The notes under the pieces: generated by a model
Databases searched by the model: none
What the model was told of the DNA's origin: nothing
The model's input: the letters and a program-made list of their open reading frames with translations, nothing else
Translations under genes and position numbers: made by a program
Source of the DNA: an uncultured Pseudomonadota bacterium
GTDB taxonomy: Bacteria; BMS3Abin14
Direction of reading: 5' to 3'
NCBI GenBank assembly: GCA_964454175.1
Contig: CAYVSA010000010.1
Span: 1-42,828, forward strand
Length of the DNA: 42,828 nucleotides
Part shown: positions 162-28,978 of the stretch, in pieces
How positions within the stretch are numbered: position 1 is the stretch's first letter
Layout of the letters: every line of letters begins with the position of its first letter

Positions 162-1358
162 ATGGGTAGGAAGCTATTGGTATCTTTTCTTGCACTATTG
201 CTTGCGATCGCCGTCGCAGCAGTTGGTCTTGCTGAAAATGAAGTGTTTGAACCTGTGAAGGCACCCTCCCTCGGGCCGGAAGGTGCTCCTGTCACAATAT
301 ACGAGATCGCCGACTTCATGTGACCTTTCTGCAAGGAGGCCGGTCCGACCTTCAAGCGGATAAAAGAAGAGTACAAGGGAAAAGTCAGATTTGTTTTCGT
401 TCCCTACATGAGGTCCTATTCCGAAAATTCGCGGGACACCGCCCTGGCGGCCTTTGCAGCATGGGACCAGGGTAAATTCTGGGAAATGCACGATCTCATT
501 TTCGAGAAAGCGCCCGATATTGACAGGGGGGTACTCGTAGAACTTGCCAGTCAGCTCAGGCTCGATCTGAAAAAATTCACCGCAAGCCTTGATAATAAGG
601 AACACCTGGACGATCTCACCGAAAATCGAAAGCGAGTCAGGGATCTGGATATCTGGAGCACGCCGACGCTCATCATTAACGGCAGGATCCTGAAGGGTGA
701 GCAACCCTTTGAGAAATATAAATCCCTCATTGACGAAGCTCTCGGCTCTCACAGCAGCACCAACCCTGTATGGCGAGCTGTTTCTTCGGTCGCTAGACTT
801 ATTCGGCCGTCGTCGGCTTACGCGTCGGGAGGTGGCGCCTTCGGCGAGGGTAAAGTACCGCTCTTTATCAAGGTCCCGGTCCTGAAACGGGTTAACGACC
901 TCAAAGTGGGCATGAAGGCTCCCGATTTTGAGCTACCCAGCACTCTGGGCCGAAGCATCAGGCTCAGCAGTTACCTGGGCAGAAAGAACGTTCTGTTATC
1001 GTTCATGCCGGCTGCATTTACCCCTGTCTGAACCGGGCAGCTGGCCGCGTACGAAGAGTTACGAGATCGTTTCGCAGCCCTGAACACCCAGGTTCTGGGT
1101 GTATTTGTAAATAACATGCCCACTCTCATGGCCTGGACGCAGGGGATCAACCTGTCCTTTCCAGTTCTCAGTGATTTCTGGCCCCACGGACAGGTTGCTC
1201 TGCTCTACGATGTTCTGAGATCAGAGGGTATTGCCGAAAGAGCTATTTTCGTTATCGACAGGGAGGGCATTATCCGCTACATAGATATCCACGACATTAA
1301 CGAAGACCCCGGGATCAATGCTATTCTGAAAACCCTGGAGGATATAGAGGCCAGGTGA
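162..1358 (+). CDS. Exported DsbA-like thioredoxin-fold / AhpE-like peroxiredoxin fusion selenoprotein, 398 aa, Sec at residues 54 and 290
   Basis: ORFs 126-323, 408-1031 and 1116-1358 share one frame and the gaps are open. ATG 162 follows AGGGGG. Signal peptide MGRKLLVSFLALLLAIAVAAVGLA. TGA 321-323 gives ADFM-U-PFC (CxxC position) with QGKFWEMHDLIF and cis-Pro loop STPTLIING. TGA 1029-1031 gives PAAFTPV-U-TGQL (PxxxTxxC) with APDFEL, LSDFWPHG and ERAIFVID. Confidence 0.88.
328..360 (+). promoter_or_regulatory. Candidate bacterial SECIS hairpin for UGA 321-323
   Basis: TCTGC-AA-GGAGG-C-CGGTCCG-A-CCTTC-AA-GCGGA: stems TCTGC/GCGGA and GGAGG/CCTTC; apical G343,T344 fall at positions 23-24 counting from the U of UGA, as in the E. 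coli fdhF SECIS. Confidence 0.7.
1035..1080 (+). promoter_or_regulatory. Possible weaker SECIS hairpin for UGA 1029-1031
   Basis: GGGC(A)GC 1035-1041 can pair with GC(A)GCCC 1074-1080; inner CGTA/TACG stem with a G-initiated loop at about 1053; folded by eye only. Confidence 0.35.
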
Positions 1359-1994: not shown

Positions 1995-3959
1995 TTGAGG
2001 GTTCCCTTGGGCCGATTCCTTCTTTCTGTCGCATTCCTGTTTTCCCTTATCCAGCCTGCGCTTGCCGCGGAGGTGAGCGAGGTCACGGTGGATTTCCCTC
2101 TGTCCGAGATTCTCGATATCAAGCCAGCTGGTGCCAAGACGGCTGGTGATGCGATCGCCAGTCAACCGGTCGGTACCGCAAAGCATGCTTCGTGGGAAGA
2201 TGAGTGGTTTGCCTACAGGCAGAAATCCCTGAGGGGCAATAACAAGGGAGCGTCCGAGCATCTTGACAAGGTAAATGCCTACAGGATGAGCGCAGGGATA
2301 CCCAACCTTTTCATCCCTTCTGCCGCCCTCATGTACGAGTCGTCCCAGGCCAGGAGGCAGGGACGGTATGACGACGCCCTCAGACTCGTAAACTATGCAT
2401 CGCTGCTTTCACCCGATGATCCTGCTCCCCACTTTTACAGGGCCAGAACTTTATATAAGCAGAACAAGCTCAGGATCCTTTCTGCTATTGATGCTGTTTT
2501 CGAGGGATGGGTGACTTTTGCCAGGGACTTTCGATCTTCATTCCCGTGGATGGTAGGTTTTGCGGTCTGGATCCTCACCGGAATAATCATTGCCAGCATA
2601 GTATCCATTTTCATTTACACGATCAGAATTATACCCCGCATCTCGCACGATATATCTCATCTGGTCAGGCTCCCCCAGTGGGTGATCAACCTGAGTTTTC
2701 CGCTCCTCATGGCGGTACTGCTCTTTATCTGGCTGCCGTTCATATGGTGGGTTGTAGCTATTGCGTTCATACCATTTTTACACGCCACAGGCCGCGAACG
2801 CGTTGCTCTGTCTGCAGGGTTGATATTTTTGGTGTGCATTCCACTGCTGGTACACGTCATGGCACTCGGAAACAATTTCAACTCCGGATTTAAGGGGATC
2901 TTGCTTTATGACTCAGAGATGTCAGGAGAAGGGCCAGCCGTCATCCGTAAGCTCGAGACTCTGAGGACCCGTTATCCCCGAGACTCTGAAGTCCTGGTCG
3001 CCATGGCTGCTGTGCTGCGCAGAGATGGAAATATTAACGGTGCCCAGGGCTTTTTGAAGAAAGCGGCGATCCTGAACCCTGAGTCCGGAATTATCATTAA
3101 CAATGCTGCCAACCTCTTGTACGCAAAGGGCCAGATACCAGCGGCCATCGATCAGTACAAAAAGGCGCTTCGATACACTGACAATACAATCATCCACTAC
3201 AACCTCAGCCTCGCCCTTCAGGAAAACCTTCAGCTTGAAGAAGGGGGCAGGGAGTTTCAGAAAGCTCAGTCAATGGATCCCGATCTTATCAGCAGGATAA
3301 CAACCAACAGGCCCGATGGAGTAGAGAATATTGTTCGGGACATTTTCCCTGCCCGGAAGACGTTCTTTCTCAGTGCTCTCAAGCTGGACGATCTGGGCAG
3401 GCAGTGGAGGAATACCATGTGGGGCGGTGTAGTGCCCTGGATCTCCTTTGCTGTGGCTTTGATCGGATTCCCCCTCGCTGGAATAATAATGCTGGCGGGA
3501 TACCCGCTGAGTAAAACATTTTTCTCCTCAGGTATATGCCGCAGATGCGGAAAACTTCACTGTGACAGGTGCAGCGAATCAGCCAAGGATGATCTGTGTT
3601 CACAGTGCCGGCAGATATTTTTCGTTAGAACGGGGGTCGACCCCGCGAGCAGGGTCAGAAAGATGATGCAGATAATGCGCTTTAACAAGAGGCGCTCCAT
3701 TACCGCCAGAATACTGACCGTGATACTCCCCGGTTCAGGCCATGCGTTTCTCGGAGAGGGCTTCAAGGCGGTTATCCTGGTCTCTGTATCTGTTGTGTTC
3801 TGGCTCAAGTGGATGCTCTGGTACGGTCTCTACAGGAGTACAACGATACTCGAGATCCAGCCTGGGACATCACTCAGGGTGATCTTCGCTGTTTTCTTTC
3901 TGGTCTACTACATTTTTGTCTTCCGTTCCCTCGGGCAGGTAATGGAGGAGAGGTTGTGA
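1995..3959 (+). CDS. Multi-pass membrane protein with TPR regions and a Cys-rich Zn-binding motif
   Basis: Signal-peptide-like N-terminus ending ALA; TPR-like segments (NNAANLLYAKGQIPAAIDQYKKAL, IHYNLSLAL); several hydrophobic helices; CRRCGKLHCDRC-x8-CSQC. Start uncertain (TTG 1995 chosen; ORF track 1950). Confidence 0.75.
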   Translation: MRVPLGRFLLSVAFLFSLIQPALAAEVSEVTVDFPLSEILDIKPAGAKTAGDAIASQPVGTAKHASWEDEWFAYRQKSLRGNNKGASEHLDKVNAYRMSAGIPNLFIPSAALMYESSQARRQGRYDDALRLVNYASLLSPDDPAPHFYRARTLYKQNKLRILSAIDAVFEGWVTFARDFRSSFPWMVGFAVWILTGIIIASIVSIFIYTIRIIPRISHDISHLVRLPQWVINLSFPLLMAVLLFIWLPFIWWVVAIAFIPFLHATGRERVALSAGLIFLVCIPLLVHVMALGNNFNSGFKGILLYDSEMSGEGPAVIRKLETLRTRYPRDSEVLVAMAAVLRRDGNINGAQGFLKKAAILNPESGIIINNAANLLYAKGQIPAAIDQYKKALRYTDNTIIHYNLSLALQENLQLEEGGREFQKAQSMDPDLISRITTNRPDGVENIVRDIFPARKTFFLSALKLDDLGRQWRNTMWGGVVPWISFAVALIGFPLAGIIMLAGYPLSKTFFSSGICRRCGKLHCDRCSESAKDDLCSQCRQIFFVRTGVDPASRVRKMMQIMRFNKRRSITARILTVILPGSGHAFLGEGFKAVILVSVSVVFWLKWMLWYGLYRSTTILEIQPGTSLRVIFAVFFLVYYIFVFRSLGQVMEERL

Positions 3960-3960
3960 A

Positions 3961-5163
3961 ATGGCTCTAAAGGGGACGCTGAAAGATTTCGGGCTGTCGG
4001 ATATATTCCAGCTCATAGCCCACCAGAGAAAGACCGGTATCCTTTATCTTGAAGATAAGGGCAAGGATGTTGCTGTCACGTTCGAACAGGGGAAAGTCGT
4101 TGGGGCAGAGCCCAGGACTGACAAGACCCAGGAAAAGGAAAAGGTGGGAGAGATCCTCATCAAGTCAGGGATACTGGACAGGGAACAGCTGTCAAGGGCC
4201 CTTGAGGAACAGAACCGCACCATGAAAAAGCTTGGGATCGTGCTGTCTGAGCAAAAGCTCATAACCCCTGAACTGTTCCAGGAGGTCCTTGCATTCCAGG
4301 TGAGAGAGACTCTTTTTAAACTGTTCCAGTGGACCAGCGGCCACTACCGGTTTGATGCTGGTAAAGTTTCCTACGATCTCCAGTTTGTTACCCCGATGTC
4401 AGCTGAGTTCATCCTCATGGAGGCAGCACGTATAATTGATGAGTGGCCCGGTATCAAGCGGAAAATACCCTCCATGGAAACCGTTTTCGCTCCAGTGCGC
4501 GGTGCCGCCGAGAAAATCACGAGAAGGTCCCAGGTTCAGGTAACTGAAGAAGATGATATCGACATTGACATCTTTGGTGAGAGCAGTGCACCCAGGGACT
4601 TTGACGACGACAGGATCCTGCTATCGGATGCTCAGGAGAGGGTTTTTGACAGGGTTGATGGAAAGAAGACAGTTGGCGTGCTCTCATACCAGACCCTTCT
4701 GGGCGATTTCGAGGTTTTAAAAGCCCTGGTGGAACTGACGGGATACGGTCTTGTCAAGGCGGTGTCGACACCAGCTGCAGCGGCGAAGGAGGATGTTCCG
4801 GCAGAGAGGGCCAAAAGAGGGAAAAATGTCTTTGTGATGGCTTCTTCCCTGACGGCCCTGGGAGTGATCCTCATGCTGTCCTTCTTTGCTCTTAGCCTTA
4901 CGAGTACTCGATTCCTGGCCTTTTCTCAGGTTAGCTGGGAAAAAGCAGCTGCTGTTCGAAAGTCTGTCGCATCTGTTCAGAAGAGGCGACTTGAGCTTGC
5001 CATGGAGGTCTACCGTATGGAAAAGGGTTCCTACCCGGCCACGGTCGAAGACCTGTTCAGAGGTGAGTTCGTCCTGTATTCGGATATCTCCTATCCCTAC
5101 GCCCGGCCCTTCAGGATCACGTGGAACGACCGGGGTTTTCTTATCTCGGATCCGAGAGAATAA
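3961..5163 (+). CDS. DUF4388 (PatA_N-like) membrane protein with MshEN-like insert and GspG-like C-terminus
   Basis: MALKGTLKDFGLSDIFQLIAHQRKTGILYL and LFQWTSGHYRF; one TM helix; RLELAMEVYRMEKGSYPATVEDL. Confidence 0.8.
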   Translation: MALKGTLKDFGLSDIFQLIAHQRKTGILYLEDKGKDVAVTFEQGKVVGAEPRTDKTQEKEKVGEILIKSGILDREQLSRALEEQNRTMKKLGIVLSEQKLITPELFQEVLAFQVRETLFKLFQWTSGHYRFDAGKVSYDLQFVTPMSAEFILMEAARIIDEWPGIKRKIPSMETVFAPVRGAAEKITRRSQVQVTEEDDIDIDIFGESSAPRDFDDDRILLSDAQERVFDRVDGKKTVGVLSYQTLLGDFEVLKALVELTGYGLVKAVSTPAAAAKEDVPAERAKRGKNVFVMASSLTALGVILMLSFFALSLTSTRFLAFSQVSWEKAAAVRKSVASVQKRRLELAMEVYRMEKGSYPATVEDLFRGEFVLYSDISYPYARPFRITWNDRGFLISDPRE

Positions 5164-11477: not shown

Positions 11478-12603
11478 ATGGACAACCTCGATCAGTTCGT
11501 ACAAGCATTGTCCGAAGCCGATAAAAAGCTGAAAACCCTCTGGAGGCATCTTTGACCCGGACGGAAAAACAAAGCAGATCAAGGAACTTGAAAAAGCCGC
11601 CTCTGAGGCCGATTTCTGGAACGATCATGAAAATGCCCAGTCCAAAACCCGGGAACTGGCACGGTTAAAGAGTGACGTAAATACTTTCCAGAAGATACAG
11701 GACATGATTTCTGATCTCGAAGCAGCCGTAGAGCTCCTCGAGGAGGCCGACAGCAGGGAGGGACAAGACCTTCTTGCAGAATCCGTGTCTCAGTTGACGG
11801 CAATGGAGAGTGCCCTTTCACAACTGGAGCTTCAGTCCCTCCTCGGGGACGAGGCAGACCCAAAGAATGCCATAATTTCCATAAATCCCGGAGCAGGGGG
11901 AGTAGAGTCGCAGGACTGGGCACAGACTCTTCTGAGAATGTACCTGCGCTGGGCTGAACGCAGAGGGTACCAGACGGAGATGCTGGATCATCAGCCTGCA
12001 GAGGAAGCTGGTATAAAGAGCGCCACCTTTGCAGTTGAGGGTGATTATGCTTACGGCTACCTCAAAGCGGAAAGCGGGGTGCACCGGCTGGTCCGCATTT
12101 CACCCTACGATGCCAGCAGCCGCAGGCACACATCCTTCGCCTCTTTGTTCGCGTATCCTGAAGTGGACGAAGACATTGATCTCGAGATCGAGGAAAAAGA
12201 TCTTCGTGTCGATACTTTCCGATCCAGCGGTGCTGGAGGGCAGCATGTGAACGTGACCGATTCTGCGGTGCGCATCACTCACCTTCCCACCGGAATAGTC
12301 GTTACCTGCCAGAACGAGAGATCTCAGCACAAGAACAGGGCAACGGCAATGCGTATATTAAGAGCAAGGATCTACGAACAGCGCAAACGGGAAAAGATGG
12401 AAGAGATAGCCAATACCCAACCTGAGAAAAAGAATATCGCCTGGGGCAGCCAGATACGCAGCTACGTTCTCCATCCATACAGGATGGTCAAAGACCACAG
12501 AACAGGATGTGAGACGGGCAACGTTGACGCGGTGTTAGACGGCGATCTGGATAGGTTCATACAGGCCTTTTTGCTGGGTGAGGGCTTAGAAGATGGCTCA
12601 TGA
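11478..12603 (+). CDS. prfB: Peptide chain release factor 2 (programmed +1 frameshift)
   Basis: ATG 11478, 25 codons to CTT TGA C (11550-11556), continues in +1 frame DPDGK...DFWND into ORF 11704-12603; GAGGQHVN, SPY anticodon-mimic region, WGSQIRSY. Confidence 0.96.
11542..11556 (+). promoter_or_regulatory. RF2 autoregulatory frameshift site
   Basis: GGAGG-CAT-CTT-TGA-C: internal Shine-Dalgarno 3 nt before the slippery CTT TGA C. Confidence 0.95.
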
Positions 12604-17268: not shown

Positions 17269-17997
17269 ATGAAGATCGCTATCCTTTCCGATATCCATTC
17301 GAATCTTGAAGCGCTCGATGCTGTGTCCTCACGGTTTGACGATCTGGCGGTGGACGAGGTTTTTTTTGTAGGGGATGTTGTCGGGTACGGTGCTGACCCG
17401 AAAGAGTGCACGAGGTGGGTTGCCGAAAACGCGAGCCTCGCCGTTGCCGGAAATCATGATTTCGCTGCGGTTGGACTTATAGAAGCCGATTCATTTAACG
17501 CTTACGCCCGGGATGCTATTGAATGGAACGCAGAACATATGGGTGAAGAAGCCGTCGATTACCTGAACGGACTGCCCCTGACAGTATCCAGAGACGGTAT
17601 AACTCTGGCTCACGCAAACCCGAGTTTGCCTGATGAGTGGGGATATATTTTTACACTCTGGGATGCCGAGATGAATTTCTCCTATTTTGACGGGTATGTC
17701 TGTTTCGTAGGGCACTCTCATCAGCCGGTTGTCGTCAGAATGGATGGCGATAACGGTGTTTCTGTGGCTCCCGGCGGGCAGGTGAACCTCCTGGAAGACA
17801 GCAAATACCTCATTAATGTCGGAAGTGTTGGTCAGCCGAGAGACGGCAACCCTGATGCCTGTTTCGGCCTGCTCGATACGGATAGCAAGGACTTTACTCT
17901 TATCCGGGTCAGTTACGACATCAACACTACTCACAGGAAAATGACTGATGCGGGCCTCCCTGCCGCTCTGGCCGACAGGCTTCTGGAGGGTAAATGA
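17269..17997 (+). CDS. Calcineurin-like metallophosphoesterase
   Basis: SDIHSN, GDVVGYG, GNHD, GHSH, NVGSVGQPRDG. Confidence 0.92.
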   Translation: MKIAILSDIHSNLEALDAVSSRFDDLAVDEVFFVGDVVGYGADPKECTRWVAENASLAVAGNHDFAAVGLIEADSFNAYARDAIEWNAEHMGEEAVDYLNGLPLTVSRDGITLAHANPSLPDEWGYIFTLWDAEMNFSYFDGYVCFVGHSHQPVVVRMDGDNGVSVAPGGQVNLLEDSKYLINVGSVGQPRDGNPDACFGLLDTDSKDFTLIRVSYDINTTHRKMTDAGLPAALADRLLEGK

Positions 17998-19784
17998 GCT
18001 CAGGCCACGGGAATGGCGTCCCAGGTGAAACCGGGACTGTAATTGATCCTGCCATGAGCCTGGTTGGAAAGCTGGAGGATCTCTCCCTTGGAGAAATATT
18101 GCAGATCGTCAGCCTTTCCCGCAGATCAGGCCTTCTTCGCCTCGAAAGCCCGGAAGGTGATGGTAATGTTTTTATCCGTAACGGGCTGATCATTTTTGCC
18201 AGCAGCTCAGATGAGAGCGAGGGTATTCTGGGCATCCTCTATTCCCAGGGCATCCTTGAGATGGATCAGATCGAGAGCATTAAAGATATGCTGGATGACA
18301 TCGAGAACCCGGCACAACTGAGAAAAATACTTGAAGAAGAACTTGACGTGGCTCCTGTGCCCTTCCAGAAAAGTCTCAAGAAAAAGATCGAAGATCTCCT
18401 CTACTCCTTCTTCATCTGGGAGGAGGGTACTTTCAGCTTCCAGCTGGTGGATGATCAGGATGAGAACAGTCTTTTCAGGAGAATGTCTCCCTTCTTTCTT
18501 GACGATGGGATCAGCTCTCAATTTATCGTTATGGAGGGCGCCAGGAAGAAGGACGAACTGCGCAGGGATCTGGCCAGGGTCAGGGGCGTTTCTTCCGGAT
18601 TCATTGACGCGGGAGAGATCGGAGACGTAGATTCTTCTGATGCGGAGAATTTGATCGCGGAGATCAATGCTTTCGCAGTGCCGGAATCAATGCCCCGCAT
18701 ACCCGACAGGATAGCCAGGGTAGTCATTCTCGTCACTGACAATAAGGATCTCATGACGAAGCTCGCTGAAGCCCTTGTGGATACTGAGTTAAACCTCCTG
18801 CATTTTAACGATGCAGTCTCCTCTCTGGTGAGGATCCAGGAACTGAGAACTCATAGGATATTCCCCTATCTGGTCCTTGATCTGATGTCCAAAGGGATCG
18901 CAGACGGAGTGCAGCTGGGCGGTCTGGATATACTTTCAACCCTGTGGGAACTTGGTAATAATCTCCCTGCCTCACTTGTTGTGTTCAATGGTATCGCTGA
19001 CAAAATGGCCGAGTTACTGTCTGATGTTGAGTCAGTTAACATTGTCCGGATCGATCCAGACGATCTGAACCGGGCGAGAGAAGACTCAGTCGGGGAACTG
19101 GGTGGGCTCGTGGAACTGATCAGTACGGAAATGGAAGCAAGGAGCGGAGACGAGGAGGAGGAATACTATGATCTGGAACGGGAGCTCTCCGACGACCTGG
19201 AAACTCTCGATCTCCCCCTCGATGCCTGGGTCGACGCAGAAGAAGATGTGCCTGAAGACCATGCCGATCCCAAGATGGCGGCGCTGAGCTCTTTTGTTGC
19301 CGAGCTGAACCGTCAGGACATCAGCGGAGAGATCACACTCATGGCTCTGAGATTTGCGTCGGAATTCGCTTCAAGAGCGGTCCTGTTCCTGGTGAGACGG
19401 GACGACCTGAAGGGACTGGGACAGTTTGGTGTTGACCTCGGTGAGGGGAACGATCCCGACAAGGCAGTCAGATCCCTGGCCCTTCCAAGAGATGGAAAAT
19501 CCATATTCAGCCATGTGATCGACTCACATCAGAGCTATCGAGGTGCGCCCCGTGAAGACGAGACGGAAAAAAGCCTCTTGCACTCTTTGGGCAGTGAAAC
19601 TCCGAGTGTCATTTATGTCGGGCCTATCATCAGTATGGGCAAGACCGCGGTAATACTATATTGTGACGATCTGCCCGATAGAGGTGGTATGGAGGATACG
19701 CAGAGCCTTGACATATTCCTCAGCCACATCGGGCTTGCCCTGGACAGGGCTTTCCTTGAGATGAAGTTAAAAGACGGCAAATAG
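17994..19784 (+). CDS. DUF4388 protein with degenerate receiver-like and GAF-like regions, first gene of che cluster
   Basis: MSLVGKLEDLSLGEILQIVSLSRRSGLL, WEEGTFSF; central LVLDLM..GGLDIL; C-terminal RAVLFLVR...AVILYCD; alternative start 18054. Confidence 0.75.
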   Translation: MSSGHGNGVPGETGTVIDPAMSLVGKLEDLSLGEILQIVSLSRRSGLLRLESPEGDGNVFIRNGLIIFASSSDESEGILGILYSQGILEMDQIESIKDMLDDIENPAQLRKILEEELDVAPVPFQKSLKKKIEDLLYSFFIWEEGTFSFQLVDDQDENSLFRRMSPFFLDDGISSQFIVMEGARKKDELRRDLARVRGVSSGFIDAGEIGDVDSSDAENLIAEINAFAVPESMPRIPDRIARVVILVTDNKDLMTKLAEALVDTELNLLHFNDAVSSLVRIQELRTHRIFPYLVLDLMSKGIADGVQLGGLDILSTLWELGNNLPASLVVFNGIADKMAELLSDVESVNIVRIDPDDLNRAREDSVGELGGLVELISTEMEARSGDEEEEYYDLERELSDDLETLDLPLDAWVDAEEDVPEDHADPKMAALSSFVAELNRQDISGEITLMALRFASEFASRAVLFLVRRDDLKGLGQFGVDLGEGNDPDKAVRSLALPRDGKSIFSHVIDSHQSYRGAPREDETEKSLLHSLGSETPSVIYVGPIISMGKTAVILYCDDLPDRGGMEDTQSLDIFLSHIGLALDRAFLEMKLKDGK

Positions 19785-19812
19785 ACCCTCAATCGAGACC
19801 GAGAGGTGTCAG

Positions 19813-20181
19813 ATGATTAAAACGATCCTCGTTGTCGAGGATTCACCCATCACCAGGTCCCTGATAGTTTCTTCACTTGAGGACATGGGTAATTTAAGGG
19901 TAGTTGAGGCTGAAAGCGGTTTCGAAGCTCTCAGGAAACTGCCTGAATTTACACCCGATCTCCTGATAACTGACATCAATATGCCGGATATTAATGGCCT
20001 CGAGCTTATCCGTTTTGCCAAACAGAACGAAAACTACAGGCATATCCCTATTATCATCGTCACCACTGAAGGTCGTGAAGTTGACAGGGAAAGGGGATTG
20101 GGCCTTGGAGCTGACAGTTATATCGTCAAGCCCTTTGTACCGGAGACCCTCCAGGAGCAGGTGTCAAAGCTGCTGGGATAA
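19813..20181 (+). CDS. cheY: CheY-like single-domain response regulator
   Basis: VVEDS, ITDINMPDING, IVTT, YIVKPF. Confidence 0.9.
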   Translation: MIKTILVVEDSPITRSLIVSSLEDMGNLRVVEAESGFEALRKLPEFTPDLLITDINMPDINGLELIRFAKQNENYRHIPIIIVTTEGREVDRERGLGLGADSYIVKPFVPETLQEQVSKLLG

Positions 20182-20202
20182 CGGTTATGCAGGAGTTGGA
20201 TA

Positions 20203-22251
20203 TTGGATCAGTCGCTCAGAGATTTTGTCGCCGAAGCTGAGGATATCCTTGACCATCTCGAAGAGTCCATCAGCCTGCTAATGGACTTGTCCCCCGATGA
20301 TCACAGAAAACCTGACATCATAAATGCCTTTTTCAGGCACGCGCACTCCCTGAAAGGTCTTTCAGGCATGCTGAACCTGAACGACCTCAGCAGCCTGTCC
20401 CACAAGCTCGAAAGCCTCCTTGATTCAATTCGTCTGGATAAAACAGACCTGAGCGACCATGTTGTGGAAGTCCTGTCCAGCGGCGTCCAGCTCCTGATCA
20501 GGATGGTTCGTGCTGTAGCCTCCGGGAAAGGCGACGGTTCAGTCAGTTCGAAGTCTTTTCTGGGGGAACTCGCGAGACTGGAAAATAGTGATACCCAGGA
20601 CGCTGTGGAGGACCTGGTCTTTTTTATTGATGTGCCTGAAAAGCTCCATGAAGTGCTCTCAGAGTACGAAGAACACCGTTTCAGGGACAACATCAGTAAA
20701 AAAATACCGTTTTTCCGGATGAACTGCTCATTCCCCATTGAAACTTTTGATGTCCAGCTCAAGGAAGTAACTGGTCGAATAAAGGAGGAGGGGGAACTCC
20801 TTACCACACTCCCGCAGACAGAGTCTGCCGGGGATGGAATGATAGGTTTTCTGCTCTATTTTACGTCCAGGAATGATGAAAGCTCAATGAAGAGCAGATT
20901 CGCCGAAGTTGGCTTCCCATTTGAACCTGTCCGGTACACGGCGCAGGACACACTGGAGCCCGCAGCGACACCATCAGTGACCACGGCAGTTAAACCGGGT
21001 GATGCTGATACAGCCGATTTTCTGGAAGAGGAGATAAGAGGAGTATCCAATACGGTGAGGGTGGATATACACAAACTTGATCACCTTTTGAACCTGGTTG
21101 GCGAACTGACCATGTTGAGAACAGGCCTGACCGCCATAAACGAACAGATCTTTTCAGGGGACGAAAGAGACCTTGACACACTCTCCCTGGATATGGGTAA
21201 AAATTTAACCGCTATTGGGAGCAAGCTTCTCGATCTTCGTGACGGAGTAATGAATATCAGGATGGTGCCCCTCGGACAGCTTTTTACAAAGCTGCAGAGG
21301 GTGTCTAAGAAACTCGCAAGAGAGACGGGCAAAAACATCAGGGTCGAGTTTGCCGGAGGTGACACTGAACTTGACAAGATGATCATGGAGGAGATCGTGT
21401 CTCCTTTACTGCACATTCTGAGAAACTCTGTTGATCATGGCATTGAGCCGTCACAGGAGAGACGAAGCCTTGGAAAGGGTGATGAGGGCCTGATAAGGAT
21501 CGCCGCTTATCAGCAGGGCAGTCACGTCCTGGTCGAAGTTGTCGACGACGGCCGAGGCATTGACCTTGCCCATGTCATGGAACATGCCCGGAAGGTTGGT
21601 ATGGTTGACGGTGAGGACGTCCTCTCGGAAGAGGAGATCATCTCTATAATTTTCCGCCCGGGGTTTTCAACAAAGGATACAGTTTCACAGGTGTCGGGCC
21701 GCGGTGTAGGTATGGATGTTGTGAAAAGGGAGGTAGAAGAGATCGGGGGTACCGTTGAGTTGACCACCGCCTTCGGCAGGGGCACGAGGATCGTGCTGAC
21801 ACTTCCCATAACCCTTGCGATCCTTCAGGCTCTCCTGGTCAGGAGCGGGAACGAAGTTTATGCAGTGCCAATGGGTTCGGTCCAGGAGACACTGCAGATC
21901 CAGGAGAGTCAGATCAAAACAATAGAGGGAAGACGTGTTATTACCCTGAGAGACAGGATGGTCCCCATTATCAAGCTGGAAGATGTATTCAGCCTCCATG
22001 AAGACGACCATGAGTCCGATGAACTCTTCATAGTAATAATCGGGCTCGGTTCCAGGACAATGGGCATACTCGTTAACGAACTACTGGGAAAACAGGACGT
22101 GGTTATAAAGCCTCTGGGTTCTGCTTTTCCTGATGCAGTCGGGTTGGCGGGCGCTGCTGAACTTGGAGACAGGTCGCCCGTGCTCGTGCTGGATGTGGCG
22201 GGTCTGATGCTGGAAGCGGTCAGGCTTGGAACCCTGAGCGGGAAGGTTTGA
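20203..22251 (+). CDS. cheA: Chemotaxis histidine kinase CheA
   Basis: P1 FRHAHSLKG, LLNLVGEL, HILRNSVDHGIE, DDGRGID, SGRGVGMDVV, C-terminal CheW-like domain; TTG start after AGGAG. Confidence 0.96.
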   Translation: MDQSLRDFVAEAEDILDHLEESISLLMDLSPDDHRKPDIINAFFRHAHSLKGLSGMLNLNDLSSLSHKLESLLDSIRLDKTDLSDHVVEVLSSGVQLLIRMVRAVASGKGDGSVSSKSFLGELARLENSDTQDAVEDLVFFIDVPEKLHEVLSEYEEHRFRDNISKKIPFFRMNCSFPIETFDVQLKEVTGRIKEEGELLTTLPQTESAGDGMIGFLLYFTSRNDESSMKSRFAEVGFPFEPVRYTAQDTLEPAATPSVTTAVKPGDADTADFLEEEIRGVSNTVRVDIHKLDHLLNLVGELTMLRTGLTAINEQIFSGDERDLDTLSLDMGKNLTAIGSKLLDLRDGVMNIRMVPLGQLFTKLQRVSKKLARETGKNIRVEFAGGDTELDKMIMEEIVSPLLHILRNSVDHGIEPSQERRSLGKGDEGLIRIAAYQQGSHVLVEVVDDGRGIDLAHVMEHARKVGMVDGEDVLSEEEIISIIFRPGFSTKDTVSQVSGRGVGMDVVKREVEEIGGTVELTTAFGRGTRIVLTLPITLAILQALLVRSGNEVYAVPMGSVQETLQIQESQIKTIEGRRVITLRDRMVPIIKLEDVFSLHEDDHESDELFIVIIGLGSRTMGILVNELLGKQDVVIKPLGSAFPDAVGLAGAAELGDRSPVLVLDVAGLMLEAVRLGTLSGKV

Positions 22252-22253
22252 TC

Positions 22254-23069
22254 TTGTACGAAGAGTATTACGGTTTTAACAGGAAACCCTTCGGTAAAAC
22301 TCCGGACCCGGATTTTTTGTATCCGAGCCCATCCCACGAAGAAGCTCTTTCAAGGTTGCAATATGGCGCCGAGGAAAGAGAGCTGACTTTGCTGACGGGG
22401 GAGATCGGTACTGGTAAAACACTTCTTTCCAGGGCACTCATTGATCTTCTGGGCGAGAAATACCACCCTGTTCTGATCATAAATCCCCGTCTCACGCCAA
22501 ACCAGTTTCTCAGGACCCTTGCCGCCAGGATCGGTGTAAGCGATCCTGCGTATCATAAAACGGGGCTGCTGGACCAGATCAATGCGGCCATATATAAAAT
22601 GTACGAAGAAGGGATCTGTCCGGTTGTGATCGTCGATGAGGCCCAGCTGATCCCTTCACGTCCGACATTTGAGGAGATCAGGCTTCTTACGAACTACCAG
22701 CTGGACGACTTGAATCTTATCAGTCTCATCCTCATTGGGCAGCCGGAGCTTAAAAGGCGTCTAAACAATACCCCCTATGCTGCAGTACGGCAACGGATCG
22801 GTATTCAGTACCACCTGAACCCCATGGGGCGTCTCGATACCGAAAAATACATATCCTTCAGGCTTGACGTTGCCGGAGGCGACGCGGGCTTGTTCACAGG
22901 TGAGGCGGTTGACGTTATTTACGAATACTCGTCCGGATTGCCCAGGGTAATAAACAATATTGCATCCAATGCCCTCCTGGTGGGACTGTCCAGGGAATCA
23001 AATGCTATCGGGCCGGATATTATTATGGACGTGGTCGAGGACCTCGACCTTGTGTCGACTGTCGACTGA
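22254..23069 (+). CDS. ExeA/GspA-like AAA ATPase
   Basis: MYEEYYGFNRKPF..TPDP.F, Walker A GEIGTGKT, Walker B IVDEAQ, LIGQPEL, GLPRVIN; start TTG 22254 (or 22248). Confidence 0.88.
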   Translation: MYEEYYGFNRKPFGKTPDPDFLYPSPSHEEALSRLQYGAEERELTLLTGEIGTGKTLLSRALIDLLGEKYHPVLIINPRLTPNQFLRTLAARIGVSDPAYHKTGLLDQINAAIYKMYEEGICPVVIVDEAQLIPSRPTFEEIRLLTNYQLDDLNLISLILIGQPELKRRLNNTPYAAVRQRIGIQYHLNPMGRLDTEKYISFRLDVAGGDAGLFTGEAVDVIYEYSSGLPRVINNIASNALLVGLSRESNAIGPDIIMDVVEDLDLVSTVD

Positions 23070-23088
23070 CCACAGGGAGAAAGTTGAG

Positions 23089-23934
23089 ATGGACCTTGTT
23101 GAGATCCGGAAAAGAGCCAAAAGTAAGAAAAAGTCCACCCGGGCATCCGGTAAAAAAACGGTCGAGGTAAAGACCGGGGCCAAAAAAGGCGCAGCTGCTG
23201 CCGGAAAGAGTGCTCCCAAAAAGAAAACAAGGAGTAAATCTGTACCCCCGGAACCTGCCGCAAAAACCCGGACAGTTGTGGAAGAGCCCGAGTCCGTTGT
23301 TGAGGAAACGGCTGTGGCACACCCTGTCGTGGAGCAAAGCGATGTTCCTGCGGTGAAGCCGGTGGAGGAGGCCGTACCAGATCCAGGTGACAGCGGCAGG
23401 ACGCTTCCGGAGATCATGGATGTCGGGTCCCTGGATGAGATACTGATGAGCCAGAGACGAGGTCCGGAGCAGGAGGAAGTTGAGGAATGCCTTCAACTCC
23501 TGACCCTGATGGTTGGCGCTGAAGAATATGGCCTTAATATAATGGATATTAAGGAGATAATACGTCCCCAGGAGGTCACAGAGGTTCCAAGGACGCCTGA
23601 CTACGTCCTCGGCATCATCTCCCTGAGGGGCGTGATCGTACCAGTATTCGACATTCGCCTGCGACTGGGATTGGAGCGTGGGGACAGGGACCGAAAGGCG
23701 AGGGTCGTAGTGGTTAATCTTGATGACAATCTCTACGGGCTCCTTGTTGACTCCGTTGTCCAGGTGTTGAACATTCCCGTCAGCAGAATAGATCCTCCCC
23801 CTGAAATTATTGGTGGAATAGATGCGGATTTTATGAAGGGAGTGGGGAAGGTTGAGGACAGGCTGGTGATACTGATTGATCTTGAGAAAGTGCTTTCCAC
23901 CGAGGAAAAGGAAGCGGGTAGCAGCGATGACTGA
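23089..23934 (+). CDS. cheW: CheW with long Lys-rich and acidic N-terminal extension
   Basis: EEYGLNIMDIKEI, VPRTPDYVLGIISLRGVIVPVFD, GLLVDSV; ATG 23089 after GGGAGA. Confidence 0.92.
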   Translation: MDLVEIRKRAKSKKKSTRASGKKTVEVKTGAKKGAAAAGKSAPKKKTRSKSVPPEPAAKTRTVVEEPESVVEETAVAHPVVEQSDVPAVKPVEEAVPDPGDSGRTLPEIMDVGSLDEILMSQRRGPEQEEVEECLQLLTLMVGAEEYGLNIMDIKEIIRPQEVTEVPRTPDYVLGIISLRGVIVPVFDIRLRLGLERGDRDRKARVVVVNLDDNLYGLLVDSVVQVLNIPVSRIDPPPEIIGGIDADFMKGVGKVEDRLVILIDLEKVLSTEEKEAGSSDD

Positions 23935-23979
23935 AACGGGGATGGACTTCCTGCAAATGTCTTATTCAGGAGCTGAAAA

Positions 23980-24897
23980 ATGAATGATCTCATCGTCTCA
24001 TGTCCCATGTGTTCAAAACGATTCAGGATCCACCCTGATAAGCTCCCGGAAGGTGTGACCTCCTTTAACTGCAGGAAGTGCGGATCACTGGTCAACATTA
24101 AGGCATCAGCCGAGGAACCGCCACCGGCCAGGTTTCAGGCCGGCGGAAAGGCAGTTCTGGTCGTACTGGACGAGGCTGAACTTGCAGGCCTCGTAGCAAA
24201 GATACTATCCAGGGGCAACCTGGGATACAGCGTAGCCAATTCAGGCCAGGAGGCTTTGGAAGCTGTTGAGGAGCAGTCACCGGCAGCTATCCTGGTCAAT
24301 GTTGTACTCCCCGATATGATGGGATATGAATTTGTTGACAGGCTGAGACGATCGGAAAAGGGAAAAGAACTGCCTGTAATTTTCCTTTCTTCACTGCACC
24401 ATGGAACGAGATTCAAAAGGGCGCCATCATCTCTTTACGGTGCCGACGACTACGTTGAAAGACACCACCTGCCGGACCTTCTTATTCCCAAACTCCAGAA
24501 TTTGTTCGAGCTGGGTCCAACAGCGCCCCCACTGGATGCCGACAAGGGTACTTTAAAGTCCCTGACTGATGTGGAGGTGGATGAGAGGAGAGAAATTGAG
24601 AAGATACACGAAGAGCCGGTGAAACCTGGCCAGGGCCTTCCCGATGAGGAAATACGCCGCATGGCGAGAGTTATCGCCGGTGATATCGTGCTGTACAATG
24701 AGGATATCATCAGGGCTGTTTCCCTCAGCGACGCTGTAAAGGCCCTCACCGGGGACATCCAGGAGGGCAGATCAATGCTGGCCGAAAGGTTCCCGGAGTT
24801 TGAGGAGGAAGCAGGTGTTATCCTTTCCGAGGAGACAGTTAAGGTTCTGGAGTCGGCAGGCGTGAACGATCACGAGGAAGGCACAAATGGATCCTGA
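23980..24897 (+). CDS. Zinc-ribbon (MJ0042-type) plus atypical receiver domain protein
   Basis: CPMC-x19-CRKCG; receiver fold with ILVNVVLPDMMG (Asn in place of phosphoacceptor Asp); C-terminal RRMARVIAGDIVLYN. Confidence 0.8.
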   Translation: MNDLIVSCPMCSKRFRIHPDKLPEGVTSFNCRKCGSLVNIKASAEEPPPARFQAGGKAVLVVLDEAELAGLVAKILSRGNLGYSVANSGQEALEAVEEQSPAAILVNVVLPDMMGYEFVDRLRRSEKGKELPVIFLSSLHHGTRFKRAPSSLYGADDYVERHHLPDLLIPKLQNLFELGPTAPPLDADKGTLKSLTDVEVDERREIEKIHEEPVKPGQGLPDEEIRRMARVIAGDIVLYNEDIIRAVSLSDAVKALTGDIQEGRSMLAERFPEFEEEAGVILSEETVKVLESAGVNDHEEGTNGS

Positions 24898-26932
24898 AGC
24901 AAGGGAAACCCTGATAAGCCAGCTCGGGTCCCCGGATGAGGAAGCCCGCAGGTTGGCCATGCTTGCTCTAAAAGACGATATCTCCGAGGAGGATTTCAAA
25001 TGGCTGGAAAACCCCCTTTCCGATGAGAGTTGGCGGGTTAGGAAGGAGGCAATAGAGGGAGCTTCATCTATCAAGCCGTCCGCCTCCCTGGTTCGCCGTC
25101 TTGTGAGCCTGATGGACCCCTCCCATGAGGTCACCCTTCGCAACTCGGTTGTAGAAATACTGGAAAAGATGGGTACGTCTGCCGTGATGCTTCTAAGGGA
25201 GCACCTCGGCATTGACCAGAGCGATACGAGAAAGTTTCTGGTTGACATCCTCGGCAACATCGCAGACCGAGACAGCATACCCGACCTCATTCCGATGCTC
25301 AGGGACCCTGACAACAATATCCGTGCGGCGGCAGCCGAGGCACTGGCGTCCATTGGCGATAAATCGGCCACGAAGGGGCTACTCGATGCTCTGGTGGAAG
25401 CTGATGAGTGGACCGCATACAGTGTTTTAGGAGCCCTTGCTTCCATACCCGCAGTTGAGGCCCTTGGCGAGTTCTTCAAGTACCTTGACAAAGGGATCCT
25501 GGCAAACCAGGCTATTGCCGGTATTGGTGCGGCAGGGGGCCTTGAAGACGGAGTGCGGCTCCTGAAGACGATCAGTTCACTTTCCAGGGGCGGCGCAAAA
25601 GCCGCCTTCCTCGCGTCTGGGCAGATTTACAACAGGGTGGTTCATTCCCTTGGATACGATGGGACAGAAGCCCTTAGAGATGCTGTCAACGAGGCGGTCG
25701 ACCAGGAAATTTTGGAGCACCTTGTCAGCCGGCTGGAAACCAGCGAAAATCTTGAGGAATCAAGAAAAATTATCGCGGTACTGGGACTTCTTGGCGATGC
25801 AGGGTTTTTGAGACCACTTCTGAGACTGATCGAGGACGACGCACTCGAACCAGATGTCACCGATGCCCTTGTGAACCTTGCACGGAAAGACGTTGAGCCA
25901 GTGTTACAGCTTATGGAGGATCCTGACGAACTGGTTCGCAGGAGGGCCCTTTTGGTTCTTTCTAAATTCGGTGGCGATGTATCCCTGGAAAAGATCTACC
26001 CTCTAATGGATGATGAGAGCGGTCATGTGCGAAAACAGGCTGCCCTGACGCTCTCTTCCATAGGCGATGTGGATTCCGTGGACAAAATGACGGCTCTTCT
26101 CGAAGATGACTACTCGGATGTTGCACAGGCCGCAGCAGAGTCCATTGCTGCCCTTGGCAGCAGGGACCCCGATGCTGTCGCCGGTAAGCTGAGGCCTCTT
26201 CTGGAGTCGTCCCCACCAGGAGGGAAGGCCCTGGTCATCAGAGTGCTCGCCCAGGTAGATCCCGAGAGGAACAAAACTGTTTTTTTCAAGGCGCTTCAGG
26301 ATGTTGAACCGACGGTCAGGGCAGCCGGTGTCTCGGGCCTTAAGAAGCTCAAGGACCTTGATACGGCAGTGGTAATAAACAGCCTTGCTGACGAAGACCC
26401 TGGAGTCAGAGTTGAGGCGGCTCTCGTTCTTGAAGAACTTAAAGTGACCGGATCCGCAGGACCCCTGACCGCAGCACTAATGGATACAGATCCATGGGTT
26501 CGTAATGTTGCCGCCTCTGCACTTGTTGCGCAGCCTGAACTGGATGAAAACGATCTTGCTGATCTCCTGGAAACGGATGACCCGATAATAAAAACCTCCG
26601 TTATCGATGCTCTCGCTGCCAGAGCCTCTGGCGGCAGCATGGAGAACGTCGACATCCTTCGGGGGATTTTCGCATCAGAGTCTGTGGAGATCAGGTGTGC
26701 GATCTGCAAGGCAGCCGGGAGGATCGAAGGTAAAAAGAGCCTGGAATTCCTCTTCTTCGCGGCTCAGGACGAAGACAGCACAGTGAGAACTTTCGCTGCC
26801 CATGCCCTCGCCGAGTCCGGAGACAATGATGCCCTCCGGCTCCTGGAAGACTTGTCAGAGAACGACCCGGACAAGAGAGTAAGATCAACCGTTCGGTCAA
26901 TCCTCTCCAGCAGGGCCAGAGATGTTTCCTAG
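24887..26932 (+). CDS. HEAT-repeat (PBS lyase-like) protein
   Basis: Repeated L.D.D..VR..AA..L motifs throughout. Confidence 0.9.
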   Translation: MDPEARETLISQLGSPDEEARRLAMLALKDDISEEDFKWLENPLSDESWRVRKEAIEGASSIKPSASLVRRLVSLMDPSHEVTLRNSVVEILEKMGTSAVMLLREHLGIDQSDTRKFLVDILGNIADRDSIPDLIPMLRDPDNNIRAAAAEALASIGDKSATKGLLDALVEADEWTAYSVLGALASIPAVEALGEFFKYLDKGILANQAIAGIGAAGGLEDGVRLLKTISSLSRGGAKAAFLASGQIYNRVVHSLGYDGTEALRDAVNEAVDQEILEHLVSRLETSENLEESRKIIAVLGLLGDAGFLRPLLRLIEDDALEPDVTDALVNLARKDVEPVLQLMEDPDELVRRRALLVLSKFGGDVSLEKIYPLMDDESGHVRKQAALTLSSIGDVDSVDKMTALLEDDYSDVAQAAAESIAALGSRDPDAVAGKLRPLLESSPPGGKALVIRVLAQVDPERNKTVFFKALQDVEPTVRAAGVSGLKKLKDLDTAVVINSLADEDPGVRVEAALVLEELKVTGSAGPLTAALMDTDPWVRNVAASALVAQPELDENDLADLLETDDPIIKTSVIDALAARASGGSMENVDILRGIFASESVEIRCAICKAAGRIEGKKSLEFLFFAAQDEDSTVRTFAAHALAESGDNDALRLLEDLSENDPDKRVRSTVRSILSSRARDVS

Positions 26933-27779
26933 TTCCCCACCCAAAATAGGTCTTACGGACGAGGAGTTCGACCTTCTTTCGGGCTTCATATACGATTTCT
27001 GCGGCCTTTACTTTGACGACGGCAACAAGTTCCTTCTGGAGAGCAGGCTCCAGAATCGTCTGAAGCTTCATCATTTCGATTCTTTTCTGAAGTACTATCA
27101 GTTTCTCCTCTATCATCCGGAGAAGCAGCAGGAGCTTAACGACCTGGTGGATGTGTTGACCACGAACGAAACCTATTTTTTCAGGGAGAGTAATCAGTTA
27201 AAAGCATTCTCAGAAGAGATCCTCCCCGAGATCGCCCGAAAAAACTCTGATAGAAGGCGTATTCGGATATGGAGTGCCGGATGCTCCACAGGGGAAGAGC
27301 CCTACACTCTGGCAATACTTCTTGCAGAAACCGGTCTCTTCAATACTGGGTGGAAGATCGACATAATTGGTACGGATATAAGTCACCGCGTACTGAAAAC
27401 AGCAAGGAGCTCAACCTACTCCAGGTCGTCATTCAGGGTGACAGAGGACAGGTATCAGAAGCAGTATTTCTCAGAAGAGAACGGTAAATTCCGGCTGGAT
27501 GAATCGATCAGGTCCATGGTTCAGTTCGGCCACATTAATCTTCTCGATAAAAGAATGCATGGCCTCGTGCCACCCTGTGATATTATCATGTGCCGGAACG
27601 TTATTATCTACTTCGACAAGGACGCCAAGGCAAAGGTAATGAATGCCTTCCACCGCAAACTCCAGCCAGGAGGGTATCTTCTCCTGGGTCACTCGGAATC
27701 CCTGATGAATATCACTACTGCATTCAAACTCAAACACCTGAAGCACGTTATGGTCTACCAGAAAGCAGAAGAGGGCTGA
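26922..27779 (+). CDS. cheR: Chemotaxis methyltransferase CheR
   Basis: LTTNETYFFRE, IWSAGCSTGEEPYTLA, GTDIS, CRNVIIYF, LLGHSES. Confidence 0.96.
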   Translation: MFPSSPPKIGLTDEEFDLLSGFIYDFCGLYFDDGNKFLLESRLQNRLKLHHFDSFLKYYQFLLYHPEKQQELNDLVDVLTTNETYFFRESNQLKAFSEEILPEIARKNSDRRRIRIWSAGCSTGEEPYTLAILLAETGLFNTGWKIDIIGTDISHRVLKTARSSTYSRSSFRVTEDRYQKQYFSEENGKFRLDESIRSMVQFGHINLLDKRMHGLVPPCDIIMCRNVIIYFDKDAKAKVMNAFHRKLQPGGYLLLGHSESLMNITTAFKLKHLKHVMVYQKAEEG

Positions 27780-27781
27780 TC

Positions 27782-28879: not shown

Positions 28880-28978
28880 GGGTAGGCTTTTGCTCGGGCT
28901 GCCCTTTCAAACGCACAGGTCAGTATGCTTTCAGCGGAAGCTGCTGGTGCGTTAATCAGACTTTTTATGGAGTGAACT

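Follow-up and report, generated by a model that had tools for sequence, protein, structure and literature searches.

A predicted exported selenoprotein joining a UxxC DsbA-like domain to an AhpE-like selenocysteine peroxiredoxin in an uncultured Pseudomonadota bacterium

The stretch of DNA analysed here, hereafter called the window, comprises positions 1 to 42,828 of the forward strand of contig CAYVSA010000010.1 (assembly GCA_964454175.1; 42,828 nt, 42.8 kb, 36 open reading frames (ORFs) taken as genes) from an uncultured Pseudomonadota bacterium of the GTDB lineage BMS3Abin14. It contains a gene that is, very probably, real and that encodes selenocysteine (Sec, U) at two in-frame UGA codons, as judged from comparison of its sequence with relatives. 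The product would be an exported fusion of a DsbA-like domain, carrying a UxxC motif, with a one-cysteine peroxiredoxin (Prx) of the AhpE type whose peroxidatic residue is also Sec. Each half is a known kind of selenoprotein; what appears to be new is the two-Sec DsbA-Prx combination, which reached no NCBIfam cut-off. We lean, with somewhat more confidence than doubt, towards the view that the protein is a peroxide-scavenging module of the cell envelope with a built-in first electron donor. Its features are listed below in window positions; numbers with a plus sign count from the respective UGA.

162 to 1358, + strand: whole gene, a 398-codon read-through ORF with its terminal TGA at 1356-1358
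162 to 233, + strand: predicted signal peptide of the Sec export pathway, residues 1-24, cleavage after G-L-A24, read by eye
264 to 737, + strand: DsbA-like (Thioredoxin_4/DSBA) domain by Pfam, residues 35-192
321 to 332, + strand: U54-P-F-C57 redox motif opening helix 55-70, with selenocysteine predicted at TGA 321-323
335 to 353, + strand: candidate selenocysteine insertion sequence (SECIS) 1, an 8-bp stem with a GUC triloop, +15 to +33, loop G at +23 from the UGA
762 to 902, + strand: linker, residues 201-247, apparently the remnant of a signal peptide that an ancestral, stand-alone Prx carried
903 to 1355, + strand: predicted AhpE-like 1-Cys peroxiredoxin domain (residues 248-398) with the conserved Arg360 at 1239-1241
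1008 to 1031, + strand: P283-xxx-T287-xx-U290 peroxidatic motif, TGA 1029-1031 read as selenocysteine
1052 to 1074, + strand: candidate hairpin A after the second UGA, +24 to +46, where a bacterial SECIS would normally lie
1084 to 1102, + strand: candidate hairpin B after the second UGA, ACACCCAG-GUU-CUGGGUGU, 8 bp and a GUY triloop, loop G at +64

The original prediction, made from this DNA alone, had read three apparently separate ORFs as a single frame interrupted only by two TGA codons at redox-active positions, and its coordinates proved exact. Under translation table 11 the gene falls into three same-frame ORFs (126-323, 408-1031 and 1116-1358); with TGA read through, the gene (162-1358, + strand) forms a single 398-codon frame whose internal stops number two, both TGA (321-323, codon 54, and 1029-1031, codon 290). 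The motifs F-M-U54-P-F-C57 and P283-A-A-F-T287-P-V-U290 are present as described and put the two TGAs on the catalytic Cys columns of both families. A residue count also bore out that C57 is the sole Cys of the whole 398-codon protein, so that the Prx domain has no resolving Cys. Since the 36 ORFs contain no in-frame TGA other than these two, both fall on catalytic columns and TGA occurs there again in independent genomes, the pattern goes beyond chance.

Pfam matches cover both halves of the frame well above the cut-offs: Thioredoxin_4 (PF13462) at residues 35-192 (88 bits, cut-off 23.2), DSBA (PF01323) at residues 46-190 (55 bits, above cut-off) and AhpC-TSA (PF00578) at residues 249-374 (122 bits, cut-off 26). 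An AlphaFold2 (AF2) model built on a 52-row alignment had a mean predicted local distance difference test score (pLDDT) of 88, with both domains mostly >90. In this model a helical insert at about residues 88-161 sits between strands 75-81 and 169-172. The cis-Pro loop T167-P168 (660-665) is invariant in nine fusion sequences. The closest solved relatives of the DsbA-like domain are Bacillus subtilis BdbD (3eu3, E 4e-19) and ScsC-type proteins. By its motif, cis-Pro loop and helical insertion, the N-terminal domain is, in sequence and predicted structure, a DsbA-like thiol-disulfide oxidoreductase. The inner dipeptides of the redox motif in the fused partners are P-F, P-H, T-H or G-Y.

The C-terminal domain is, on the evidence of its motif, its conserved Arg and its modelled fold, an AhpE-like 1-Cys peroxiredoxin. 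The best PDB sequence match of residues 245-377 was Mycobacterium tuberculosis AhpE (E 6.5e-27), and a Foldseek search with the AF2 model returned AhpE entries 1xxu and 4x0x (TM score 0.93, root-mean-square deviation 1.3 A, 38% identity). P283, T287 and R360 are in place, the last in a context, ERAIFVID, also found in the orthologues described below. The original prediction had pointed to an atypical GVFVNN segment as a possible sign of relaxed selection; the segment does differ from the GVLTDN of the orthologues, but the difference is only a lineage-specific D-to-N change.

The predicted export signal likewise stood up to reading by eye and to a hydrophobicity scan. As read by eye, the N-terminus (MGRKLLVSFLALLLAIAVAAVGLA, then ENE after the predicted cleavage point) starts with a basic n-region, continues with a hydrophobic core of 20 residues and has small residues at -3 and -1, with neither a twin-Arg motif nor a lipobox Cys; the top 12-residue Kyte-Doolittle mean of the core is 3.09, and the AF2 model has helix 2-21 in this region. 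Once the signal peptide is removed, the mature protein would have a mass of ~41 kDa. In a comparison with NCBIfam release 20.0, the protein scored 98.2 against the cut-off of 190 of NF041057 (Rcas_1661 / DsbG-like selenolipoprotein), the lipobox Cys being absent here too, and 54.5 against the cut-off of 270 of NF040737 (PrxU).

Relatives were collected by a one-genome-per-species scan in which 599 stretches matched and 580 were confirmed; the best 80 were kept as loci L001 to L080, and protein entries are given as P numbers. The close relatives among these 80 loci are L001, L003 and L002. L001 lies on a 2.03-Mb chromosome, CP070698.1. The orthologue is found at 2917-4113 of locus L001 and at 363-1562 of locus L003, and both encode proteins of 398-399 amino acids. 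The downstream gene order DUF1844 / TPR membrane protein / DUF4388 is common to the window, L001 and L003, which identifies these two as orthologous loci and agrees with the predicted conservation of the fusion. L001 and L003 carry TGA at both sites; L002, which begins at residue 69 at a contig end so that site 1 lies outside it, carries TGA at the second.

The alternation between Cys and TGA that had been expected at both sites was seen in the alignment of homologues. In the first column TGA occurs in L001 and L003, W in P0002, where we take it to stand for TGA, and Cys in P0009, P0010, P0216, P0258, L004 and L007; in the second, TGA occurs in L001, L002 and L003 and Cys in 77 of the 77 other Prx loci. 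P0002, a metagenome protein of 399 amino acids that is 59% identical, has W at exactly both sites, probably because TGA was translated under a code in which it means Trp. Full fusions with Cys at both sites are P0009, P0258, L004 (Sumerlaeota) and L007. Two entries, P0010 and P0216, show CPFC at the first site and break off at ..FTPV; the position of this ORF end suggests that they combine a Cys at site 1 with a TGA at site 2. Five more (P0008, P0015, P0016, P0017 and P0248) are middle pieces ending at ..FTPV. The reverse form, with Sec at site 1 and Cys at site 2, was not seen among the fusions found, and in the homologues the site columns held Cys, with Trp or Gly never seen. An all-against-all search of representatives returned mainly proteins with 3-6 tandem DsbA domains, and no more than three fusion-type entries came from it (P0216, P0248 and P0258). 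That gene callers would split such a gene, as had been foreseen, is reflected in public entries that are fragments or W-translated. In a Prx-domain tree (quick search, branch support by the SH-like approximate likelihood ratio test, SH-aLRT, with a long-branch warning, and leaving out the glutaredoxin hybrids P0031, P0036 and P0041 described below), the Sec fusions formed one clade (99) and the Cys/Cys fusions fell in two places, so that the tree does not resolve whether the fusion originated once or twice. Many long proteins (~400-1200 amino acids; P0122-P0271 and P0003-P0007) carry two to six tandem DsbA-like domains related to the N-terminal domain of the window protein, and the few of them that are named come from Myxococcota.

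The original prediction had allowed for relaxed selection downstream of the UGAs; instead, strong purifying selection was found after both. Pairwise codon comparison of the four Sec genes (the window gene, L001, L002 and L003) gave proportions of synonymous differences (pS) of 0.57-0.89, synonymous sites being saturated. After U54, in the DsbA part, the proportion of nonsynonymous differences (pN) was 0.14-0.29 against a pS of 0.68-0.85, and after U290, in the Prx part, 0.05-0.16 against 0.63-0.73. This last part is the best-conserved segment, with 72-90% amino-acid identity, and dN/dS was 0.04-0.13 where dS was computable.

Nor does UGA appear to be reassigned in this genome, since TGA terminates 21 of the 36 window ORFs, this gene included, and release factor 2, which reads UGA, is encoded with a UGA-dependent frameshift. 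The gene, prfB (11478-12603, + strand), begins with ATG at 11478 and runs through 24 sense codons to a CTT-TGA-C +1 frameshift site (11550-11556) preceded by GGAGG; the downstream frame enters the ORF at 11704-12603, and the Pfam match starts at position 49 of PCRF.

A stem-loop just after the first UGA makes a convincing SECIS candidate on comparative sequence grounds. The candidate is present in 3/3 genes that cover site 1 (the window gene, L001 and L003), and nowhere in the gene is synonymous change more constrained than in codons 56-64, where 7/7 informative columns are identical against a background of 27%; within the hairpin 6/6 columns are identical across the three genomes (binomial P=0.0004). 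At the same position in the two Cys fusions for which DNA was at hand, folding energies were -3.1 and -4.1 kcal/mol, as against -8.6 to -11.3 kcal/mol in the Sec genes.

Two candidate hairpins, neither of them fully canonical, follow the second UGA. For hairpin A, the number of Cys homologues with an equally or more stable structure at that position was 0, 1, 1 and 10 of 77 for L001, L002, L003 and the window, respectively, and its substitutions preserve pairing (GU/AU/GC). In hairpin B six core pairs are invariant in 4/4 Sec genes, the outermost pair being U-U in L002 and L003; only 0-2 of the 77 Cys homologues are as stable or more so, and the four Sec genes all agree in 4/5 of codons 309-313, against a 14% background. 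Hairpin B has the same build as the site-1 element with its loop G farther away (+64 against +23). It could serve as a SECIS of long-range or bipartite type, or be an unrelated RNA element; as a side possibility, hairpin A could act in a bipartite SECIS as a spacer that brings hairpin B within reach of SelB. The sample for RNA covariation consisted of the four Sec genes. The consensus bacterial SECIS spacing was used for comparison, and three other selenoprotein genes in the loci, taken as controls, had hairpins at +14 to +40. Single-sequence folding of the 70 nt after each UGA could not be distinguished from shuffles (z -0.24 and -1.22), and the hairpin signal is therefore visible only through comparison with orthologues and Cys homologues.

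Several of these observations count against selenocysteine at the two codons. The window copy of the site-1 candidate contains one C.A mismatch. Hairpin A, which has the expected spacing, is weak in the window, where 10/77 Cys homologues do as well or better; it shows no synonymous constraint across the four Sec genes and has no GU in its loop. The constrained element, hairpin B, occupies +56 to +74, roughly double the spacing normally seen. Rfam, which may lack a model for bacterial SECIS elements of this type, gave no match, either at gathering thresholds over the whole window or at E<=10 over positions 100-1500, and neither selA, selB, selC nor selD was found among the 36 ORFs of the window, nor any tRNA in it. 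This lack, in the window, of a Sec machinery and of an Rfam SECIS match, together with the public gene call P0002 that has W at both positions, is what would be cited for a gene that encodes no selenoprotein at all, being either in decay with real stops or written in a code (4 or 25) in which TGA is an ordinary amino acid. We consider this extremely unlikely. TGA is kept at catalytic columns in L001, L003 and, at site 2, L002, with synonymous sites saturated and nonsynonymous change low; homologues have Cys in both columns, never Trp or Gly; and TGA ends 21/36 window ORFs, this gene included, with a release factor 2 gene that has a UGA-dependent frameshift site.

The setting of the Prx family outside the fusions bears on what the protein may do. 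Stand-alone relatives of the Prx domain were found in 75 non-fusion loci (of the best 80; within L005-L080). All of the 69 that could be measured have a hydrophobic N-terminus (2.70 +/- 0.26, minimum 1.97), and 67 of the 69 have a single Cys, which identifies the family as exported 1-Cys Prx. A same-strand ORF lies within 400 nt upstream in 72/75 of these loci, and in 69/72 it encodes a thioredoxin-fold, TlpA/Redoxin-like protein, mostly 0-30 nt away; L054 (a short piece), L069 and L072 depart from this. A signal peptide and an SMYCPxC motif were seen in each of the four partners that were inspected. In L017, L054 (ORFs ending at 2835 and 2832) and L029 (ending at 2516) the partner motif is UxxC (SMYUPHC, DAYUPIC), the short piece in L054 being explained by the in-frame TGA of its UxxC partner. 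In these three loci Sec partners accompany a Cys-Prx, with GGU-loop hairpins ~23-40 nt downstream, and the swap from Cys to Sec affects the first position, the same motif position as U54. The genomes with this module are metagenome-assembled and labelled Deltaproteobacteria, Thermodesulfobacteriota, Nitrospirota and Thermodesulfovibrionia, with two labelled Verrucomicrobiota or Limisphaerales. The pair of a TlpA-like protein and an exported 1-Cys Prx is apparently common, unstudied and, by analogy, a counterpart of the TlpA-PprX system discussed below.

Other arrangements were seen around the same Prx group. In P0031, P0036 and P0041 it is fused to a C-terminal glutaredoxin-like CxxC domain and has no signal peptide, and in P0020 the order is the opposite of that in the window, with the DsbA-like domain after the Prx. 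In L011 (589-846 and beyond) and L053 (1117-1374 and beyond) a second Prx of the 2-Cys type, cytoplasmic-looking, follows downstream with a TGA at its peroxidatic site (DYTFVUPTE); it resembles the known selenoprotein PrxU. A multihaem c-type cytochrome of ~500 amino acids comes directly after the TlpA-like/Prx pair in L028, L058, L063, L079 and L080, and a DsbH/DUF255 thioredoxin-like protein after it in L033 and L068; such neighbours may hint at a link between the pair and envelope electron carriers.

The linker of the window protein suggests how the fusion came about. In alignments it matches the signal peptide, plus the N-terminus of the mature protein, of the stand-alone Prx (..SSAYA, followed after the cleavage point by SGGGAFGEGKVP..), and its top hydrophobicity is 1.18-1.35 as against the 2.70 +/- 0.26 of the 69 stand-alone N-termini. 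Amino-acid identity to the orthologues is 33-52% in this region, and residues 215-233 have pLDDT <50 in the AF2 model. The linkers of P0017 and P0016 hold Gly/Arg/Ser-rich insertions of ~25 and ~50 residues, respectively, so that the region accommodates large length changes. This alignment suggests that the fusion arose from a joined gene pair and that the linker is a relic signal peptide. It also invites a different reading, namely that the polypeptide is a polyprotein cut in the envelope at the relic site (after ..SSAYA and before SGGG in the window, between AHA and ES in orthologues) into a UxxC DsbA-like protein and a Sec-Prx, as in the two-gene systems. The AxA-like site has been kept and the linker is disordered in the model. 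The hydrophobic core, however, has decayed to values below the minimum of 1.97 of the 69 real signal peptides, and in the window it holds Arg and Ser, so that recognition by signal peptidase is unlikely; moreover, the insertions in P0016 and P0017 interrupt the linker. We regard cleavage as very unlikely.

In the mechanism that we favour for the intact fusion, SelB-dependent insertion would recode both UGAs, directed by the hairpins just downstream, and a flexible linker of ~45 residues would tether the UxxC DsbA-like domain to the U290 Prx. The U290 selenolate would reduce H2O2 or an organic peroxide and become a selenenic acid, as in established Prx chemistry. Because the Prx domain has no resolving Cys, the exposed U54 would be the attacker of this selenenic acid and would form an interdomain Se-Se bond; C57 would then resolve that bond, leaving a U54-C57 selenenylsulfide and freeing U290. 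Finally, an envelope reductant, for example a relay of the DsbD/CcdA/ScsB type or a small thiol, would reduce the UxxC motif. The protein would thus be a fused selenium version of the two-gene module of a TlpA-like protein and an exported 1-Cys Prx that is widespread in related anaerobes. The Se-Se intermediate is chemistry that we infer by analogy. That the UxxC domain recycles the Prx, one of the two functions first proposed for it, is favoured by context, a TlpA-like CxxC gene standing upstream in 69/72 of the stand-alone Prx loci. To call the peroxidase self-contained, as the original prediction did, is too strong: the U54-C57 selenenylsulfide still requires a reductant or a substrate, and no DsbD/CcdA gene was found in the window or in the 3-kb surroundings of the 80 loci.

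Some facts sit badly with such a reductive cycle. DsbA-class proteins are usually oxidases or isomerases and not reductants of the TlpA kind, and a diselenide is hard for a thiol, here C57, to resolve. The likeness of the fusion to the TlpA-Prx operons is functional, by analogy between the partners, and not homologous. The single-chain AF2 model had a predicted template modelling (pTM) score of 0.62 and gives the interdomain geometry without confidence. A search for a donor gene of the DsbD/CcdA type came up empty, both in the 42.8-kb window and in the 3 kb around each of the 80 loci. Eight multi-transmembrane ORFs near the 80 loci were considered for this part and rejected: two are TPR membrane proteins and the other six, an MFS transporter, CbiQ, CbiM, a cytochrome bd subunit, cytochrome b561 and one of no family, had no DsbD_TM match.

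The same relay could also run in the oxidative sense, as a peroxide-driven disulfide oxidase in which the oxidised DsbA-like domain passes the oxidising equivalent on to cysteines of envelope proteins and peroxide takes the place of DsbB/quinone. The class of the N-terminal domain favours this, its nearest solved relative, BdbD, being named a disulfide bond formation protein, as do the dipeptides P-F, P-H and G-Y, which are classed with the DsbA/DsbC type, and the lack of a reductase gene nearby (in the window and within 3 kb of the 80 loci). There is also a precedent in Prx4, which oxidises members of the PDI family according to the available part of PMC3018787. The relatives, nevertheless, follow the rule of a TlpA-like partner in 69/72 cases, and TlpA has been shown, in the available part of PMC3322552, to be an electron donor to the exported Prx PprX; the same part describes ScsC-type DsbA-like proteins as kept reduced by ScsB. 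In cytoplasmic relatives the partner joined to this Prx group is a glutaredoxin-like domain, which is a reductant, and as most relatives belong, by their record titles, to anaerobic lineages, peroxide would probably be an unreliable supply of oxidant for them. Together these points make a disulfide oxidase fairly unlikely, and we retain peroxide scavenging as the preferred function. More doubtful still is the boldest version, a catalytic interdomain diselenide relay in which peroxide is the oxidant that makes disulfides in exported proteins of an anaerobe. If true, it would be the first natural hand-over from a Prx to its reductant that runs wholly through selenium, and the protein would be a bacterial equivalent of the Prx4-PDI pathway, built on selenium and contained in one chain.

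The nearest functional parallel is the exported Prx system of Caulobacter crescentus. As far as the available part of PMC3322552 goes, TlpA reduces PprX there, ScsB feeds TlpA and can be substituted by DsbD, and PprX, a member of the BCP/PrxQ subfamily, possesses a resolving Cys. The likeness between this ScsB/DsbD-TlpA-PprX chain and the window protein lies in an exported Prx recycled by an exported thioredoxin-fold CxxC protein. In contrast to what that part reports, the window Prx is an AhpE-like 1-Cys enzyme, its partner is DsbA-like, the two share one polypeptide with Sec as the nucleophile in each domain, and a ScsB/DsbD gene was seen neither near the window gene nor in the flanks of the loci. 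By analogy, the window protein may work like the TlpA-PprX system, yet it is not a member of it, its partner being a fused DsbA-like domain and not TlpA.

Three further systems share part of the design. M. tuberculosis AhpE (1xvw, 1xxu and 4x0x) has the PxxxTxxC motif and the conserved Arg in common with the window Prx domain, and also lacks a resolving Cys; it differs in being cytoplasmic, stand-alone and a Cys enzyme. Peroxiredoxin-glutaredoxin hybrids (P0031, P0036 and P0041; PF00462 + PF00578) follow the same design of a Prx fused to its reductant, but have no signal peptide, carry the reductant as a small C-terminal domain and use Cys for all active residues. The reductant of AhpE is mycoredoxin-1/mycothiol. 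In the Prx4-PDI pathway of the endoplasmic reticulum, as the available part of PMC3018787 presents it, a Prx in an oxidising compartment of extracytoplasmic type likewise passes oxidising equivalents to a thioredoxin-fold CxxC protein; that system is eukaryotic, consists of separate proteins with a 2-Cys Prx, contains no selenium and makes disulfides on purpose.

The two halves taken singly are on record. A 2026 inventory of 119 prokaryotic selenoprotein families lists both Prx (TxxU; PrxU of Eubacterium acidaminophilum) and DsbA-like protein form 1 (UxxC) (PMC13188914, Table 1), in agreement with the earlier claim that Sec forms of the two occur separately. They have Sec at the same catalytic positions and belong to the same Pfam families, PF00578 and PF01323, but are listed there as single-Sec, single-domain families (PMC13188914), and the window protein is a two-Sec fusion. 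Other kinds of double-Sec fusion also appear in Table 1 of PMC13188914; the combination of DsbA with Prx is absent from all 119 of its entries. Nor is a DsbA-Prx fusion mentioned in the available text of the section on selenoprotein fusions of the GOS study (PMC2398784), and in the available part of the paper on the Olavius symbionts the DsbA-like and Prx selenoproteins are separate (PMC1976440). Full-text literature searching found no DsbA-Prx fusion, with or without Sec, in line with the original statement that no description of the two-Sec fusion was known; the families of Haft & Tolstoy 2025 entered this comparison as given in Table 1 of PMC13188914 and in NCBIfam release 20.0. The Cys/Cys fusions carry generic annotations, 'redoxin domain-containing protein' and 'peroxiredoxin/protein-disulfide isomerase'.

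Such a family is invisible in annotation as long as gene callers split or drop its genes. The existence of Cys/Cys, Cys/Sec and Sec/Sec forms makes it possible to compare why a Prx and its reductant should both switch from Cys to Sec. The protein also offers a test bed for how anaerobes clear peroxide from the envelope and where the electrons come from, and for how a bacterial ribosome deals with a short mRNA that holds a pair of SECIS-dependent UGAs, the hairpin spacing of one being unusual.

Elsewhere in the window, the leucyl-tRNA synthetase has relatives that are 62-85% identical, among them that of the L001 genome at 68%, and the next best, from Bacillota, are at ~60%. Positions 17994-29821 hold a chemotaxis-type cluster with CheA, CheW, CheR, CheB, receiver domains, a HEAT-repeat protein and DUF4388 proteins, which appears to be unrelated to the fusion gene.

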